Origin: an uncultured Bacilli bacterium
Lineage (GTDB): Bacteria > Bacillota_I > Bacilli_A > RF39 > UBA660
DNA length: 54,405 nucleotides
Reading direction: 5' to 3'
Assembly: GCA_947628965.1 (NCBI GenBank)
Contig: CANRBV010000004.1
Location: 1 to 54,405 of the forward strand
Part shown: piece after piece, positions 19,394-51,697 of the stretch
How positions within the stretch are numbered: position 1 is the stretch's first letter
Layout: every line of letters starts with the position of its first letter
Notes under the pieces: model-generated
What the model was told of the DNA's origin: nothing
Seen by the model: the letters and a program-made list of their open reading frames with translations, nothing else
Databases searched by the model: none
Position numbers and translations under genes: made by a program

Positions 19394-19641
19394 AAAAAAG
19401 AGTAGAATAAAGAAAAACCAAGAAACTGAGGAGTACATAACTGGATTTTTTAGAGAGTTTATGGGTGCTGAAAATAAACAAAGAAAGTTATGGAAGGTAG
19501 CAGTGGAGTTGAAATTCTAAAAATAACTTTAGGAATTTTCGCAATCTTAGCGTTAAAAAGAAAATGAAGGGTATACATATTGTATAAAATAAGGTGGTAC
19601 CGCGGGGAAATCTCGTCCTTATAACAAAGGAGGAGATTTTT
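19394..19641 (+). promoter_or_regulatory. Valine T-box riboswitch
   Basis: AGAGA and GCTG stem I boxes; specifier GTA (Val) at 19497-19499; T-box AAGGTGGTACCGCG at 19591-19604; terminator aaatctcgtcctt/aaggaggagatttttt; valS downstream. Confidence 0.95.
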
Positions 19642-19642
19642 T

Positions 19643-20398
19643 ATGTTAAATTATGAAATAGTTTTAAAAAAATTTATGGAATATGTAAATACTTTTGATA
19701 CGAAAGACGCGGGGATTGCTATGAAAATTTCTCATAGTATCCATACGGCAGATTTAGCAGGAAAACTTGCAAAACGTTTGGAACTAGAAGAAGAACAAAT
19801 TGTATTTTGCAAAGTTTTAGGATTGCTTCATGATATTGGACGCTTTTTTCAATACCAAAAAAATAAATCCTATAATGATTATTTAACCAAATTTGACCAT
19901 GCCTTATATGGAGTAAATTATTTATTTCAAGAAAATCATATTAAAGATTTTGCGATTCCCAATAAGTACTATAAAATTTTAGAAAAAGCTATTTTTAACC
20001 ATAATAAATTAAAAATTGAAAGCAATTTAACCGAAGAAGAATTATTTTTTACAAAATTTATTCGAGATGTTGATAAAATTGATATTTTTAGACAAGAAGC
20101 GACTTCTTTTGAATGGCAATATAATAAGACCATGTCTCGAAAAGTGCGAACTGTTTTTTATAAACATCAATTAATTGATAGTAAAGATTTAGTTTCTAAA
20201 ACGGATTCTTTAATTATGCAACTGGCTTTCACCTACGATATTAATTTTCAAGAATCTTTTGAATTACTTTTAGATACAGATAATTTAGAATTATTCTTGA
20301 GTGTTGTGGAAGTGGATAAGGAATTAGAAAGTGAATTTGAAAATGTAAAAAAAGAACTTCGTACATTTATAAAAGAAAGGATGAACACATTATGTTAG
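19643..20398 (+). CDS. HD-domain phosphohydrolase
   Basis: H..(SHS), [19 protein letters not shown] motifs. Confidence 0.9.
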
Positions 20399-29700: not shown

Positions 29701-29711
29701 AGGTGAAGATT

Positions 29712-30845
29712 ATGAATAAAAAAGATTATTATGAGGTTTTGGGCGTAAGTAAAGATGCCTCCGATGAAGAAATAAAAAGAGCCTTTCGTCGTCTTGCTAA
29801 ACAATACCATCCAGATGTTAATAAAAGCCCTGATGCCGAAGCAAAATTTAAAGAAATAGGAGAAGCCTATGCTATTCTTTCTGATCCAGAAAAACGTCGT
29901 CAATATGACCAATATGGCCATGCTGCCTTTGAAAATGGCGGGGCAGGATTTAGTGGCTTTGATATCAATGATATTGATTTGAGTTCCATATTTGAAGATT
30001 TATTTGGTTCTTCCTTTGGTGGAGGTTTTGGCTCTAATTTTGGATTTAACTTTGGTGGAGAAAATAGAAGAAATTCTCCTGTGAAAGGAAAAGATCGCTT
30101 AGTTACTTTAAATTTAACTTTTGAAGAAGCTGTTTTTGGATGTAAAAAAAGTATTCATTTGGATTTAAACGAATCTTGCGAAAATTGTCATGGCAAAGGT
30201 GGATTTAATGAAAAGAAATGTTCAAAATGTAATGGTCGTGGAGTCGTTGTAATGGAACAAAAATCAATGTTTGGTATTTTCCAAACCCAAACGACATGTC
30301 CTGATTGTGGCGGAAGTGGCGTTACTTTTGAACGTATTTGCTCAGAGTGTCATGGTACTGGATATCTAAAACAGAATAAAGAAATTGTTGTAAGTGTACC
30401 AGAGGGTGTTGATACTGGATATCAATTGCGTATTACAGGAAAAGGAGAAGCTGGAAAAAATGGTGGACCTAATGGTGATATTTATATTGAATTTAATGTA
30501 AAAAAACATGATTTCTTTGAAAGACATGAGGAAGATATTTATTTGGAAGTGCCTATAACAATTGTTGAAGCTGCACTTGGTTGTAAAAAAGAAATTCCAA
30601 CATTAGAAAATTCAGTTATGTTAGAAATTAAACCTGGAGCCTCTACAGGAGACAAATTACGCTTAAAAGGAAAAGGAATTAAAATACCAAACTCTTTACG
30701 TAAAGGAGATTTATATGTTATTTTAAATGTGGTTACCCCAACAAAATTAAATCGTAAACAAAAAAGTTTGTTAGAAGAACTTCGTGATACAGGATTAGAA
30801 GATGAAACGATTTTTAAAAATTTTCAAAAAAATTTAAAAAAATAA
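29712..30845 (+). CDS. dnaJ: Chaperone DnaJ
   Basis: [13 protein letters not shown] region, four CxxCxGxG zinc motifs; start after GAGGTG. Confidence 0.98.
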
Positions 30846-30876
30846 AAAAATATACTAATTTTTTAAAATTTAGCTC

Positions 30877-30913
30877 AAAAAAGACAAATTTGTTCTAATA
30901 ATTTGTCTTTTTC
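30877..30913. terminator. Intrinsic terminator after dnaJ (same hairpin at 40333-40369)
   Basis: aaaaaagacaaatt-loop-aatttgtcttttt. Confidence 0.85.
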
Positions 30914-31042
30914 TATGGAAATTTTGGTTAAAACTTTATTAAATATATATTTGCTTTTCTATTTTTTCTTTGCTATATTGACCATACGAGTATTAAATTA
31001 TGGTGTTTGCCACCAATTTTTAAAAGAAACGAGGTGGCCACG

Positions 31043-31126
31043 ATGACAAAAAAAGATTTTTTAATTGCAGCATTGATCGTGATAATTATTTTATTAATCG
31101 TATTCTTGATAATTAACGTTTGTTAA
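31043..31126 (+). CDS. 27-aa hydrophobic peptide MTKKDFLIAALIVIIILLIVFLIINVC, candidate type I toxin (copy 1)
   Basis: TTGCTT(30951)-17-TATATT(30974) promoter; GAGGTG SD paired with upstream GCCACC; single-TM peptide. Confidence 0.7.
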   Translation: MTKKDFLIAALIVIIILLIVFLIINVC

Positions 31127-31150
31127 ATTAGTGGTTTTGGTTGATAAGGT

Positions 31151-31222
31151 AAAAAAAACACCATTTCCAATAAGGAATGATGTTTGCAAAAAACAGGCAA
31201 GCACTAAATTTAGTACTCGCAT
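31151..31222 (-). ncRNA. Candidate antisense antitoxin sRNA (copy 1)
   Basis: Minus-strand TTGCAT(31257-31252)-17-TATAAT(31234-31229); ends in a hairpin plus U-run (plus-strand A8 at 31151-31158); ends are approximate. Confidence 0.55.
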
Positions 31223-31320
31223 AATTAAATTATACTATAAAATATAAATAAATGCAAATTGAATTGAAAGTAAAGGAAAAAAAGAGTAAAATTTAAATTA
31301 AGATATGGAGGAAATAAAAT

Positions 31321-31389
31321 ATGAATTATTTTAAAGAGAACCTCCCAACCAAGACAAATAGAGGTTTCGAGGGAAAAGTAGACTTTTAA
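31321..31389 (+). CDS. 22-aa orphan leader ORF MNYFKENLPTKTNRGFEGKVDF
   Basis: GGAGG SD; TTGAAA(31264)-17-TAAAAT promoter; same 5' coding sequence as 38192 and 40774 but without poly-G. Confidence 0.5.
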   Translation: MNYFKENLPTKTNRGFEGKVDF

Positions 31390-38191: not shown

Positions 38192-40290
38192 ATGAATCGT
38201 TTTAAAGAGAACCTCCCAACCAAGACAAATAGAGGTCTCGGGGGGGGGGTATATTAGAAAGTAAAAGAAAGAAACCCAGAGACCAAATAAAATGGTTAGT
38301 CCTTGGAATCGTCATAATAGGACTAAGTATCCTAGGAACAAGTTATGCTTATTGGAACTATACAGCAAGTCAAAATAAATATAATGAAGTAAGAAGTAGC
38401 TGTTTAAAACTAGCTATGGAAAATGAAAAAGATGCAATTAGTTTAAAAGAAGCTTATCCCTTAACAGATGAAGAAGGAAAAAAATTACAACCCTATACAT
38501 TTACAATACAAAACCTATGTGAAGAAAAAGCAAATTATACAGTAAAAGTAGAGAAATTAAAAAGAAAAGGAAAAGAAGAAACTACAATATTAGATAGTAA
38601 GTATGTAGCAATAGAAGTAAATGAAGGACAAAAAGAGATATTAGGGGATTATACAAAAGGAAGAAGTACCTATGAAGGAGAAGAGTACGAATCTATAGAA
38701 GCAAGAGAGATAGTAAAAGGAACAATAGAAGGAAAAGGAACAAAGGAATATAAAATAAGATTGTGGATGGATGAAAGTGTAGAAGCAACAGAAGAAACAA
38801 TGAATAAAAGTTTTATAAGTAAGATAGTAGTGGATGGAAATCTAAATGAGTTAGCAGAATATAACGAACCTATCTTACATGGAACAGATCCAGTATTAAA
38901 AGAAGAACTAGTACCAGTCGTAATAGATGATACAGGAAAAGTCACGAAAGCCAATACTAAAGAAGAGTGGTACAACTATGAAGAAAAAAGATGGGCAAAT
39001 GCGGTAATACTTACAAATAATAAAACAGCTGATAATTATAAAGAAGGAGAACAAATACTAGAAAGTGACATAGAAAGTTATTTTGTATGGATACCAAGAT
39101 ACAATTATAAATTATTTAATACAACGAATTTTACCTATACAGCATCAACTGAAGGAGAAGTAGCAAGTCCACAAATAATAGAGGTAAGGTTTGGAACAAA
39201 AGAAACAAATGATAAAAATAAAAATGAATGCACAACACCAGGAGAATCAGGTAATATTGGAAACTGCAACAATGGCGATTGGATGACGCATCCAGCATTT
39301 CTAGCATTTCCTAATACGAAAGGTTTATGGGTCGGCAAATTTGAGACAGGATATAAGGGAGCAACCAGTACAACTACTGCTCAACATAATATAAATAACT
39401 CAAAACAAGTTATTATAAAACCAAATGTGTACAGTTGGAGAAGTATACAAGTATCAAATGCCTATCAAACTTCCTTTGGATATAAACGAGAATTAGAAAG
39501 TCATATGATGAAGAATACAGAGTGGGGAGCAGTAGCTTATTTACAACAAAGTTTGTATGGTTCTCATGAAAGTGTCAGAATTAATAACAATCGTGCTTAT
39601 TTAACAGGATATGCTGCAGTGAATAAACCAACTTGTGGATATACAGCAACAAATGAAACATGCAATAAATATGAAGAGGTGAATCTAGGGACAGGAATGA
39701 ATGCTCAAGATGGAACTTATACCTTAAATTATTTTAACTCAAAAAGTGTTTCTGCAAGTACTACTGGAAACTATTACGGTATTTATGATATGAGCGGAGG
39801 ATCAGTTGAATACATGATGGCTGTGATGGTAGATGAAAATGGCAAACCATCAAGTGGAAGGAATAGTCTTTATAATAGTGGATTCAATGGAACATTAACA
39901 TGTCCCAATTGCGCAGAAGGAACATTAAAACCAGATGGTACAACTGAGGTAAAAGATGGAATAGATTTTCCAAGGGAATCGAAATATTATGATACTTATA
40001 AATATTCGAAGAGTGCTAATGATTATACAAACGGAATCTTAGGAGATGCATCAAGTGAAATGGGCCCATTTAAAAATGCGGTTTATACTCCAACAAATGG
40101 TGAAGAAGCTCAAACAAGACATATTAGCGGGTGGTATGACGAAGATATATTACCTATTATTTATGGATTTCCATGGATCATGCGAGGTTTAGGTACTTCT
40201 CATGGTATTGGTGCAGGAATCTTTTCTTTGGATCGTGCTTATGGAAATTTGAGTAACGTTCGCAGTTTCCGTATTGTTCTTGCACTTTAA
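38192..40290 (+). CDS. Surface protein A: SipW-class signal plus C-terminal FGE-sulfatase/CLec-like domain; frameshifted at G10 (699 aa if G11)
   Basis: Leader frame stops at TAG after GGGVY; -1 frame from 38251 gives ...WLVLGIVIIGLSILGTSYAYW and is open into ORF 38416; GIYDMSGG and FRIVLAL motifs. Confidence 0.85.
38240..38249 (+). repeat. Poly-G (G10) contingency tract
   Basis: Ten consecutive G in an AT-rich genome, starting at codon 17 of gene A. Confidence 0.9.
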
Positions 40291-40498
40291 TTTAAAAAAT
40301 GAAAAAAATACCAATTTTTTAAAATTTAGTTCAAAAAAGACAAATTTGTTCTAATAATTTGTCTTTTTCTATGGAAATTTTGGTTAAAACTTTATTAAAT
40401 ATATATTTGCTTTTCTATTTTTTCTTTGCTATATTGACCATACGAGTATTAAATTATGGTGTTTGCCACCAATTTTTAAAAGAAACGAGGTGGCCACG

Positions 40499-40582
40499 AT
40501 GACAAAAAAAGATTTTTTAATTGCAGCATTGATCGTGATAATTATTTTATTAATCGTATTCTTGATAATTAACGTTTGTTAA
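40499..40582 (+). CDS. 27-aa hydrophobic peptide, candidate type I toxin (copy 2, identical)
   Basis: Same as 31043-31126; promoter TTGCTT 40407 / TATATT 40430. Confidence 0.7.
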   Translation: MTKKDFLIAALIVIIILLIVFLIINVC

Positions 40583-40606
40583 ATTAGTGGTTTTGGTTGA
40601 TAAGGT

Positions 40607-40677
40607 AAGAAAAAACACCATTTCCAATAAGGAATGATGTTTGCCAAACGGGCAAGCACTAAATTTAGTACTCGCAT
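40607..40677 (-). ncRNA. Candidate antisense antitoxin sRNA (copy 2)
   Basis: Minus-strand TTGCAT(40712-40707)-17-TATAAT(40689-40684); same hairpins; ends are approximate. Confidence 0.55.
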
Positions 40678-40773
40678 AATTAAATTATACTATAAAATAT
40701 AAATAAATGCAAATTGGATTGAAAGTAAAGGAAAAAAAGAGTAAAATGAAATTAAGATATGGAGGATTAAAAC

Positions 40774-42695
40774 ATGAATCATTTTAAAGAGAACCTCCCA
40801 ACCAAGACTAGTAGGCGTCTCGGGGGGGGGGTATATTAGAAAGTAAAAGAAAGAAACCCAGAGACCAAATAAAATGGTTAGTCCTTGGAATCGCCATAAT
40901 AGGATTAAGTATTTTAGGAACAAGTTATGCTTATTGGAACTATACAACACATCAAGAAGGAATAAATGAAATCCAAACTTCTTGTATTAAATTAGCATTA
41001 GAAAATGAATTAAATAGTATCACAATAGAAAATGCATATCCTTTAAAGGATGAAGAAGGAGAAAAATTAACGCCTTATAAATTTACAATAAAAAATGTAT
41101 GCAAAACAACAGTGAATTACACAATAAAAATAGAACAATTAAAACCAAATAACGAAGAAGAAACAAATCAAATAGAAAGTAAGTATATAGCAATAGAAGT
41201 AAATGAAGGACAAAAAGAGATATTAGGGGATTATACAAAAGGAAGAAGTACCTATGAAGGAGAAGAGTACGAATCTATAGAAGCAAGAGAGATAGTAAAA
41301 GGAACATTAAAAGGAGAAGAAAGTAGAAACTATGCTATAAAACTATGGATGGATGAAAATGTAACATTAGAAGATAATGTAGTAAATAAAAAGTTTATAG
41401 GTAAAGTTGTAGTAGATGGAAATCTAAATGAGTTAGCAGAATATAACGAACCCATCTTACATGGAACGAATCCAGTACTAAAAGAAGAATTAGTGCCAGT
41501 CGTAATAGATGATAAAGGAAATGTAACAAAAGCCAATACCAAAGAAGAGTGGTACAACTATGAAGAAAAAAGATGGGCAAATGCAATCATCTTAGCAAAT
41601 GGAAGTTCTGAAGATTATAAAGAAGGAGAACAAATACCAGAAGAGGATATAGAAAGTTATTTTGTATGGATACCCAGATATAATTATAAACTTTTTGATA
41701 TGGGAGAATATACTAGTGTAACGGATGCAATAACAAACAAAGGACCCACAACAGCAATTCAAATAAGATTTGGAACAAGCGATACAACCGATACAAAAAA
41801 AGAATGTGCAACGCCAAAAGTGTCAGGGGAAAGTGGAGATTGTGCAGTAGGGAAGTGGATGACGCATCCAGCATTTTTAGCTTTTGAAAACACCAAAGGA
41901 TTATGGGTAGGCAAATTTGAAACAGGATATAATCAAAGTGAAGATGGTTCATTAAAAGATACAACAAGTTGGACTAAAGAAAATGCAGTACAAAAGGTTA
42001 GTGATCCTGAAAAAATTATCATCAAGCCAAATTTGTATAGTTGGAGTGGAATGGTCATAGCAAATGCCTACCAAACAAGTTTTAATTATAAACGAGATTT
42101 AGAAAGTCATATGATGAAGAATACAGAGTGGGGAGCTGTAGCTTACCTTACCAATTCTTTATATGGAAGATGTACGAAAGTAAATGGGCAAGCTACTTGT
42201 ACAGAAGTAACACAAAATCGAAATAGTGAGTCTTTAACAGGCTATACATATGAAAGCGGTAAATATCCAAATTCAACGGGAGCAAGTACAACCGCTAATC
42301 GTTCAGGAATCTATGATATGAGTGGGGGAAATTGGGAAAGCGTTATGGGAATTATGGCGAATGCAAATGGTACTTTGCAATTCAATACAGAGAGTGGATT
42401 TACAAACGAAAATTTTCCAACCGAGGAGAAATATTATGATAAATATTTGTATAATTCACATCTCCAAATTTATAATAAAAGAATCCTTGGAGATGCAACT
42501 GGAGAATTGGGACCTTTTTCAAGTAAGAATGGTACGATAAGTTCAATGTATAGTGATTATGCTTGGTTTGTTTGTTATAATGGCATTTTCTTTCGCCGTG
42601 GTGGACATGTTAGTACTGGATCTAATGATGGACTTTTTGCCTTTTATTATATGAATGGTAATATGGGTGTTTTTCGTATTGTTCTTGCCTTATAA
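40774..42695 (+). CDS. Surface protein B, paralogue of A; frameshifted at G10 (640 aa if G11)
   Basis: GGAGG SD; MNHFKENLPTKTSRRLGGGVY-stop; -1 frame from 40833 is open into ORF 41112; TSYAYW signal, GIYDMSGGNWE, FRIVLAL. Confidence 0.85.
40822..40831 (+). repeat. Poly-G (G10) contingency tract
   Basis: Ten G starting at codon 17 of gene B. Confidence 0.9.
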
Positions 42696-50184: not shown

Positions 50185-51429
50185 ATGAGAAGAATATTAG
50201 CTAGTATGGACATTGGTTCTAATACAATAAAAATTATTGTAGCTGAAATAGTAAAAAGAAAAGTCAATATTTTAGCCGTTTCGGAAACAAATACTAAAGG
50301 ATTCAAAAATGGCCTTGTTGTTAATAAGGATACTTTTGTTTCGGCTTTAAAAGAAACATTAAAAAAAGCAGAAGATATTCTGGGTTTAAAGATCCAAAAG
50401 ATAATTATTACCGTTCCTTCTTTTCATACGAAATTTCTTATTAGTGAAGGAAGTACCACGATTACGAGTGAAGACAAAATAATAAAAGGTAACGATATTA
50501 TAAGAGCAATGCAAGCTTCCGTTTATAATAAAATACCAGAGAATTATGAAATTGTAGATGTTGTTCCAACCAAATTTATAGTTAATGAGCAAGAACCTGT
50601 TTTAAATCCATTGGATAGGACTGCTAATAAGTTGCATGTAAAAACATTAATTACTGTGATTCCAAAAGAAGAGATGATGCCTATTTTAGAATGCTTTTCT
50701 AAAATAGATGTTGAAGTAATAGGAACGAATTTAACTTCGGTAGGCGATTATTATGCTATAAAAAATGATAAAATGGATAACGATGTGGGAGCAATATTAA
50801 ATATTGGAAGTGAAAGTACAACCATTTCTATATTTAATAAAGGCATACTTGTGAATACTTCTGCAATCGAAATTGGTGGACAAAATATCGATAATGATAT
50901 ATCATTTATATATAAGGTAACGAAAAATGATGCTAAAAACATCAAAGAAACGTTAGGACTTGCCCATAAAAGACAGGCCTTAGCAAACAATACCACTGTC
51001 GTTACCAATAAATTAGGAGAAAGCATCACGATTAATCAATATGAGTTAAGTGAAATTATAATGAGTCGATTAGAAGAAATTCTAAATTTAGCAAGAAAAC
51101 AAATTAATTACTTAACAAAAAAGGAAATTCATTATATAATAGTAACGGGTGGCGTAAGTGAGACGGAAGATTTTGCCTTGACTCTTGAAAGTGTTTTTGG
51201 CAAAAGTGCTAAACTTGCTCTTATTCACGAAATTGGAGTACGAAATAATAAATATTCTGCCTGTTTAGGTATTCTTAAAAACTTTGATAATAAGTTGCGA
51301 TTGCGTGGAAATGCTTATTCTATATTTTCAATAGAAGAATTGGAAGAATTAAGTGGTAAACATAAAAAACTAAATATATCGGATAATTCGGTATTAGGAA
51401 AATTATTTGGATATTTTTTTGATAATTAA
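50185..51429 (+). CDS. ftsA: Cell division protein FtsA
   Basis: DIGSNTIK, NIGSEST, TGGVS; C-terminal amphipathic helix VLGKLFGYFFDN; upstream of ftsZ. Confidence 0.95.
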   Translation: MRRILASMDIGSNTIKIIVAEIVKRKVNILAVSETNTKGFKNGLVVNKDTFVSALKETLKKAEDILGLKIQKIIITVPSFHTKFLISEGSTTITSEDKIIKGNDIIRAMQASVYNKIPENYEIVDVVPTKFIVNEQEPVLNPLDRTANKLHVKTLITVIPKEEMMPILECFSKIDVEVIGTNLTSVGDYYAIKNDKMDNDVGAILNIGSESTTISIFNKGILVNTSAIEIGGQNIDNDISFIYKVTKNDAKNIKETLGLAHKRQALANNTTVVTNKLGESITINQYELSEIIMSRLEEILNLARKQINYLTKKEIHYIIVTGGVSETEDFALTLESVFGKSAKLALIHEIGVRNNKYSACLGILKNFDNKLRLRGNAYSIFSIEELEELSGKHKKLNISDNSVLGKLFGYFFDN

Positions 51430-51697
51430 GGAGAATGTATTATGGATGGAGATTAAATATAAAGAATAATTCGGTATTAGGAAAATTATTTGGATATTTT
51501 TTTGATAATTAAGGAGAATGTATTATGGATGGAGATTAAATATAAAGAATAATTCGGTATTAGGAAAATTATTTGGATATTTTTTGATAATTAAGGAGAA
51601 TGTATTATGGATGGAGATTAAATATAAAGAATAATTTGGTATTAGAAAAATTATTTGGATATTTTTTGATAATTAAGGAGAGTGTAACATGGACGGA
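51371..51697 (+). repeat. 83/82-bp tandem repeat (about 3.7 copies) of the ftsA 3' end, RBS and start codon
   Basis: ataatt(c/t)ggtatt anchors at 51383, 51466, 51549, 51631; T-run lengths 7,7,6,6; the last copy supplies the ftsZ ATG. Confidence 0.97.

Follow-up and report, generated by a model that had tools for sequence, protein, structure and literature searches.

A unit of ~530 bp occurs twice (~30846-31373 and ~40302-40826, 98% identity) in a 54,405-nt stretch of DNA from an uncultured Bacilli bacterium of the RF39 lineage (the whole of which we call 'the window'), and each copy carries a short, unannotated open reading frame (ORF) facing a promoter-like site on the opposite strand. The question raised by this locus is whether such a unit is a genetic module in its own right and, if so, of what kind. 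[quoted passage not shown] Synthesising the comparisons described below, we consider it probable, though well short of certain, that each repeat is an autonomous type I toxin-antitoxin-like module, belonging to a new family and having a layout of the bsrG/SR4 type.

In copy 1, which is flanked by dnaJ (29703-30845) on one side and by a decayed surface-protein leader remnant on the other, the putative toxin mRNA would be transcribed from a plus-strand promoter at 30951..30979, with a -35 box TTGCTT (30951-30956), a 17-nt spacer and a TG-extended -10 box TATATT (30974-30979), and with a predicted start at ~30986. This promoter is present as the earlier note described it, and a TTGnnn-17-TATAAT counterpart occupies the same alignment columns in other family members; its weak -35 box, matching the consensus at 3/6 positions, explains its absence from the list produced by our consensus scan. 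The 56-nt leader that lies 3' of TATATT contains GCCACC (31009-31014), able to pair with GGTGGC (31033-31038) in the Shine-Dalgarno (SD) sequence GAGGTGG (31031-31037), and when the 5' UTR is folded alone this predicted helix (31009..31038, plus strand) does form over the SD, with the AUG paired too. The ORF itself (31043..31126, plus strand; ATG at 31043, TAA stop at 31124-31126) encodes a peptide of 27 amino acids, MTKKDFLIAALIVIIILLIVFLIINVC, in which a charged N-terminus, MTKKD, is followed by ~20 consecutive hydrophobic residues.

The two ends of this mRNA are also predicted to be held together. In the minimum-energy fold of 30987-31235 (-64.1 kcal/mol, z = -5.6), the first 22 nt (30987..31008, plus strand) bind two sites in the toxin 3' UTR (both within 31156..31219, plus strand): CGAGTATTAAAT (30987-30998) pairs with ATTTAGTACTCG (31208-31219), and the adjoining ATGGTGTTT with AAACACCAT (31156-31164); duplex energies and covariation, discussed below, point the same way. 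The fold-back originally noticed, between TGGTGTTT (31001-31008) and AAACACCA (31156-31163), turns out to be part of a longer interaction than was claimed.

On the minus strand, a convergent promoter (31229..31257) consists of TTGCAT (31257-31252), a 17-nt spacer and TATAAT (31234-31229); it scores 10/12 in the scan, which reads it as TTTGCA-18-TATAAT. Promoter, fold and a terminator-like site together predict an antisense RNA of ~72 nt (31151..31222, minus strand), close to the ~70 nt first suggested and complementary to the toxin 3' UTR, with a hairpin at 31220-31197 plus a U-run and a second at 31184-31157 that runs into U8 (31158-31151); its predicted fold has z = -6.0. Together with loci L008, L116, L007 and L102, the window forms a clade with a shortened antisense RNA, devoid of the 5' hairpin and of the A-rich linker (window 31197-31260). 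In this clade the plus-strand 3' hairpin has no U-run to define the end of the toxin mRNA, and transcription may continue into the promoter and leader that lie downstream; in main-group loci (e.g. L014, 1101-1222), by contrast, the toxin mRNA has a clear intrinsic terminator.

Copy 2 repeats this arrangement, with toxin-mRNA and antisense promoters of the same sequence as in copy 1 (40407..40435, plus strand, -35 at 40407-40412 and -10 at 40430-40435; 40684..40712, minus strand, -35 at 40712-40707 and -10 at 40689-40684) and an ORF (40499..40582, plus strand) for an identical 27-aa peptide. The changes that distinguish the second module (40407-40712) from the first fall solely in the antisense-RNA region, where the earlier note had placed most of them: one extra G in an A-run (40609), and a 2-nt deletion with two substitutions (copy 1 31186-31195). 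Through the deletion and substitutions, the predicted antisense RNA of copy 2 (40607..40677, minus strand) has lost the U-run after its first hairpin (GCCCGUUUGGC) and folds at -25.2 kcal/mol (z = -5.1). Each repeat unit opens with an intrinsic terminator (30880-30913 in copy 1; AAAGACAAATT...AATTTGTCTTT followed by a T-run), which ends the dnaJ transcript in copy 1 and a surface-gene transcript in copy 2, such that the duplicated cassette comprises terminator, module, outward promoter and leader. Another repeat in the window, an ~83-bp unit present ~4 times at 51332-51697, covers the end of the ORF at 50185-51429 and the region before the ORF at 51689.

Since the two copies are 98% identical, no selection can be read from the window pair alone. 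For the same reason they hold no independent information against the suggestion that a chance ORF and chance promoter-like hexamers were simply duplicated along with AT-rich intergenic DNA, and promoter-like sites are indeed common here (8 found against 5.2 expected). We therefore turn to relatives, for which one genome per species was scanned with a degenerate DNA pattern, ATGACNAARAARGAYTTYYTNATH, corresponding to the first eight codons, MTKKDF[LF]I. At least 119 stretches in contigs of species-representative genomes matched. Among these are at least 85 modules in at least 82 loci, the window's two copies included, with hydrophobic ORFs of 21-30 aa (at least 72 distinct sequences among the matches listed) and a strong SD upstream, spread over at least about 70 species-level genomes; the rest of the matches fall in unrelated phyla, in long proteins or in junk sequence, and act as internal negatives. 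Such a number of homologous modules, displaying the covariation and coding constraint set out below, refutes an origin by chance, to which we would now attach almost no probability, and shows the Firmicute type I layout that had been recognised in the window (that of txpA/RatA and bsrG/SR4) to be a recurrent one.

The genomes concerned, among the matches listed, are all metagenome-assembled genomes of uncultured gut bacteria (from rabbit, goat, sheep, deer, mouse, chicken and human) labelled as Bacilli, Tenericutes, Mycoplasma sp. CAG:611, Firmicutes CAG:822, Candidatus Coprosoma or Erysipelotrichaceae. Part of them are assigned to the order RF39, to which Ca. Coprosoma, equivalent to GTDB genus CAG-822, belongs (PMC8035907). 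Applied to 2.9 million viral contigs, the same pattern matched five times, in each case outside the family. Several genomes have the module on more than one contig (two or three) or as tandem copies (L035, L076), and one module copy, in L095, is frameshifted. A tRNA gene lies within 150 nt of 15 of the 85 listed modules (L014, L018, L020, L021, L023, L026, L036, L065, L071, L073, L076 and L091 among them), always downstream of the toxin ORF and on the strand of the antisense RNA; the tRNAs are those for Leu, Arg, Thr, Met, Asn and Lys, and the small RNA may thus also receive read-through from tRNA transcription. Conservation across the first eight codons is ascertained by the search pattern rather than measured, except in five neighbouring copies; a peptide HMM recovered such neighbours from outside the pattern's reach (MNKKDFLI, MIKKDFLI, MSKKDILI, MKKKDLLI), and as these had not been selected by the pattern and yet keep the motif, an N-terminus of the form M-x-KKD-[FIL]-LI is conserved.

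That the ORF is a real coding gene, albeit unannotated, is indicated by the pattern of change between its homologues. Of the 862 codons numbered 11-22 in 72 unique homologous ORFs, 814 (94%) have T as their second base, entropy at codon positions 1, 2 and 3 is 1.15, 0.39 and 1.39 bits, respectively (codons 9-21), and near-invariant DNA alignment columns recur at every third base across the hydrophobic stretch. The pN/pS ratio of 0.39 compares with 2.39 for the +2 frame and with 0.46 for the +1 frame, the latter contrast being small; a strong SD lies 6-9 nt 5' of the ATG in nearly all members. These observations bear directly on the idea that the functional unit is RNA only, in other words that a structured element without coding function, or two small RNAs or terminators in convergent orientation, spread as a repeat with an incidental ORF. 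The very strong RNA structure signals on both strands would suit such an element, and T-rich DNA easily gives rise to hydrophobic ORFs, but the period-3 constraint and the T at codon position 2 speak against it, as does the joint retention of ORF length (21-30 aa), of SD spacing and of the N-terminal motif; we judge it improbable.

The structure of the mRNA is likewise under selection, as judged from the sequences. In predicted ensembles of 35 non-redundant mRNAs, the SD is paired with a mean probability of 0.87 and the AUG with 0.86, the equivalents of the anti-SD/SD helix elsewhere in the family including CCTCC-GAAA-GGAGG; and in all 35, 15 or more of the 30 nt at the 5' end (mean 24.5) are engaged in pairs with the 3' UTR, so that both forms of UTR pairing, whose conservation in homologues the earlier note had asked after, are kept. 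A subgroup comprising L028, L051 and L108 departs from this in one respect: in place of an anti-SD upstream, the predicted partner of its SD is a CCUCC motif of the 3' UTR ('AATTCCTCCTTTT'), which would be a relocated element meeting the function of the anti-SD.

The arms of the long-distance interaction change together, in a manner specific to each subgroup, as GGAAUA/UAUUCC, GGAACA/UGUUCC, GAACC/GGUUC and CGAGUA/UACUCG, and further as UUGAGUGC/GCACUCAA, UUGGGUGG/CCACCUAA and UUAGACGC/CGUCUAA. RNAalifold, run on a MAFFT alignment of 5' UTR plus 3' UTR, recovered this pairing in part only, because the subgroups are misaligned; it was assessed instead by folding each sequence and by comparing the energies of cognate and non-cognate duplexes. 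A 5' segment binds its own 3' UTR with a mean energy of -34.1 kcal/mol, as against -18.8 when the 3' UTR is that of another subgroup and -14.3 when the 5' segment is shuffled, and no non-cognate partner beats the cognate 3' UTR in 61 of 66 modules. On the alignment, the long-range helix is 88% canonical (slid controls reach 44% at most), with double-sided changes in 10 of its 11 pairs. The 5' end of the mRNA, on this sequence evidence, co-evolves with its own 3' UTR.

Turning to the opposite strand, a convergent promoter scoring at least 9/12 is found at the homologous position in 60 of 66 members, 52 of the 66 having a TG-extended -10; in most it lies 100-138 nt past the stop codon, with a spacer that is usually 17 nt. 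Within the -10 box T1, A2 and T6 are kept and positions 3-5 vary (TATTAT, TATAAT, TAAAAT, TATGAT). The antisense RNAs predicted from these promoters have three parts, namely a 5' hairpin (28/32 begin with one, its stem differing in sequence between species), a second hairpin, and a terminator hairpin with a U-run beside the toxin stop codon. The last two were found by RNAalifold, with compensatory change in 10 of 14 pairs; standard pairs make up 98.6% of the whole, against 88.6% in shuffles and 28-42% in slid controls, and none of 500 shuffles matches the observed paired fraction, number of compensated pairs or covariation score.

Read on the antisense strand, the 14 consensus pairs include 70 G.U cells and no A.C cells, implying unbroken hairpins in the small RNA and weaker ones in the mRNA, in which these sequences have to unfold before the 5'-3' clamp can form. 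This asymmetry is strong rather than absolute, and in part reflects the choice of consensus pairs. A stricter version, with wobble pairs exclusively on the antisense strand, had to be softened, as extending one stem adds an A.C or bulge position. Considered as a whole, the comparison supports the ORF, SD occlusion, 5'-3' pairing, antisense promoter, hairpins and terminator; the antisense gene, by this measure, is under selection, which is comparative evidence for a gene and is distinct from detection of a transcript.

We propose the following model for how such a module might work, in which the strands of the transcripts, the involvement of RNases and the toxicity of the peptide are inferred by analogy with known systems. 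The plus strand would give rise to an mRNA of ~235 nt for a 27-residue, single-helix membrane peptide. In the nascent mRNA the anti-SD, transcribed a few nucleotides earlier, would capture the SD as soon as it appears, after which the first ~22 nt would pair with the two sites in the message's own 3' UTR, generating a silent but stable mRNA. From the minus strand, the convergent promoter would produce a small RNA, ~72 nt long in the window and ~110-135 nt in the majority of relatives, fully complementary to the toxin 3' UTR and ending at an intrinsic terminator near the toxin stop codon. By pairing with the 3' UTR, this RNA would displace the mRNA 5' end from those very sites and create a long duplex, to be degraded by RNase III and 5'-end-dependent nucleases before any peptide is made. 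Were the small RNA lost, the stable mRNA would eventually be translated, and the peptide could then damage the membrane.

A more ambitious version can be entertained, which we regard as speculative and rather doubtful, whereby the mRNA 5' leader is a condensed, built-in copy of the antisense RNA and the whole is a three-state strand-displacement switch, acting as the dominant addiction-type module of RF39. The first 22 nt of the window mRNA do look like the two ends of the small RNA, 5' and 3', brought together, and leader and small RNA would therefore compete for the same two 3'-UTR sites. The states would be a self-clamped form (stable and silent), a form bound by the small RNA (unclamped and degraded) and a processed form (translated). 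The module would, on this account, be lineage-specific to the uncultured, genome-reduced order RF39, often parked beside tRNA genes, and in the present genome would be carried along with the promoters of phase-variable surface-protein genes.

It is conceivable, on the other hand, that the architecture is as described and the peptide harmless: it would be a small membrane protein conserved for some other role (modulating a membrane complex, for example), with its output tuned by mRNA structure and antisense RNA. The comparative evidence would, in its entirety, suit a small membrane protein under such regulation just as well; the conservation of M-x-KKD-[FIL]-LI is unusual among type I toxins, and the modules sit in housekeeping regions, not in phages. 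Set against this, multi-copy and tandem duplicates, a frameshifted copy and variable neighbours are typical of selfish type I systems and unusual for a housekeeping small protein, and a double lock on translation combined with a dedicated cis-antisense RNA is a signature of toxin control (PMC8594479). We hold the non-toxic alternative to be unlikely, though deserving of serious attention, and continue to favour the toxin-antitoxin reading.

Both copies in the window lie just upstream of a leader that begins MNxFKENLPTKT, within the same ~530-bp repeat. The paralogous genes at 38192-40290 and 40774-42695 share this 16-codon leader (MNxFKENLPTKT...), followed by a G10 tract (38240-38249 and 40822-40831) because of which the long ORFs (listed from 38416 and 41112) are one base out of frame; a single additional G would bring leader and body together, an arrangement that looks like phase variation by strand slippage. 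After module 1 the leader survives a third time, as a remnant (31321-31389) that has lost G tract and gene body. In the source metagenome, depth over the leader region is 120-435, against 11-15 in the flanks, an excess that suggests many such genes.

This proximity, together with the lack of a clear plus-strand terminator here, invites the view that the module is no more than an extended regulatory leader for the phase-variable surface-protein gene that follows it, and was duplicated along with the promoter and leader of that gene. The family argues otherwise: none of 124 fetched loci has the MNxFKENLPTKT leader, and what follows 15 of the 85 listed modules is instead a tRNA gene on the opposite strand. 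Within the window, moreover, a third poly-G gene, at 38192, has no module upstream, and the leader has a separate promoter, TTGAAA-17-TAAAAT (31264-31292). We consider a leader function very improbable; the link between module and poly-G surface-gene leader is peculiar to this genome.

As to expression, none of the RNA runs searched contains the window's own sequence, and a goat locus used as query found no useful RNA run, but five mouse-gut RNA-derived assemblies contain close relatives of the module, on unstranded contigs whose flanks do not match the reference. An apparent module-specific expression in these data (depth 35-2300, against 0-5 in the flanks) was rejected, the contigs having come from relatives with differing flanks; similar depth on conserved pieces of a neighbouring protein gene, and the summing of depths over paralogues, undercut it further. 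What the contigs do establish is presence in RNA libraries; on strand, transcript ends and enrichment over flanking genes they are silent.

Is the family new? The peptides match no toxin family in Pfam or NCBIfam at E<=10, the Fst toxin model included, which bears out the initial impression that they stand outside known families. In Rfam, also at E<=10, the window module has only chance-level matches, as has a main-group module (L014), for which BsrG (RF01412) alone is listed, at 11.8 bits against a gathering threshold of 55; the other antitoxin RNA models gave nothing. The sole gathering-level Rfam match in the window is a T-box leader (RF00230, 136 bits) at 19411-19623, upstream of the gene at 19643. 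A collection of 15 billion proteins, queried for exact matches, contains none of six family peptides, and a full-text literature search found neither 'MTKKDFLI' nor 'type I toxin-antitoxin' with 'RF39' in any indexed paper. A new type I toxin family, first raised as a possibility, is thus the reading best supported by sequence, no known toxin or RNA family matching at E<=10; it is a family invisible in current annotation, as its peptides are too short for gene callers and the six variants are absent from the protein collection.

To our knowledge, descriptions of type I systems are confined almost entirely to cultured Proteobacteria and a handful of Bacillota, and we are aware of no RF39-type gut bacterium, all of them organisms with small genomes, that has ever been grown. 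If our interpretation is correct, a type I family specific to these bacteria would be added. The ~70 natural variants also offer ready material for covariation studies of a 5'-3' mRNA clamp and of the antisense RNA that competes with it. The module could account for very abundant small RNAs in gut metatranscriptomes, and could serve as a compact kill-switch or stability cassette for low-GC hosts.

Finally, we consider the module alongside systems that have been described. The T1TAdb database holds 24 families of type I systems, and gives as hallmarks of those from Gram-positive bacteria SD/anti-SD pairing, a 5'-3' long-distance interaction and an antisense RNA that overlaps on the 3' side (PMC8594479). 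Of the traits that characterise the class in the same source, three can be recognised in the sequence here: an mRNA for a small (<60 aa) hydrophobic peptide, a gene for a cis-antisense RNA, and a lock made of SD and 5'-3' pairing. The module is like bsrG/SR4, txpA/RatA, bsrE/SR5 and yonT/SR6 of Bacillus subtilis in having convergent genes and an antisense RNA with complementarity to the 3' region of a short hydrophobic-peptide mRNA; its SD, too, is held in structure, and the antisense RNA probably acts through duplex-triggered decay. It has, however, no sequence relationship with BsrG, TxpA, BsrE or YonT, in peptide or in RNA. The module's peptide is shorter (21-30 aa), with its charged cluster at the N- rather than the C-terminus, the overlap takes in the 3' UTR and extends to about the stop codon, and the modules are chromosomal, outside prophage-like regions here.

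With hok/Sok (plasmid R1, enterobacteria) and aapA1/IsoA1 (Helicobacter pylori) the module shares a full-length mRNA locked by a 5'-3' interaction and by SD sequestration. In those Gram-negative systems, the peptides of which are unrelated to the module's, the antisense RNA hits the 5' region and the mRNA needs 3'-processing, whereas here the antisense RNA covers the 3'-UTR sites bound by the 5' end. Like fst/RNAII (par, Enterococcus pAD1), the module pairs a small single-helix, toxin-like peptide in Bacillota with convergent RNAs; its peptide differs in having neither a match to the Fst toxin model nor an APxxxG motif. The Fst RNAs interact through 5' repeats that lie outside their overlap. 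[quoted passage not shown]
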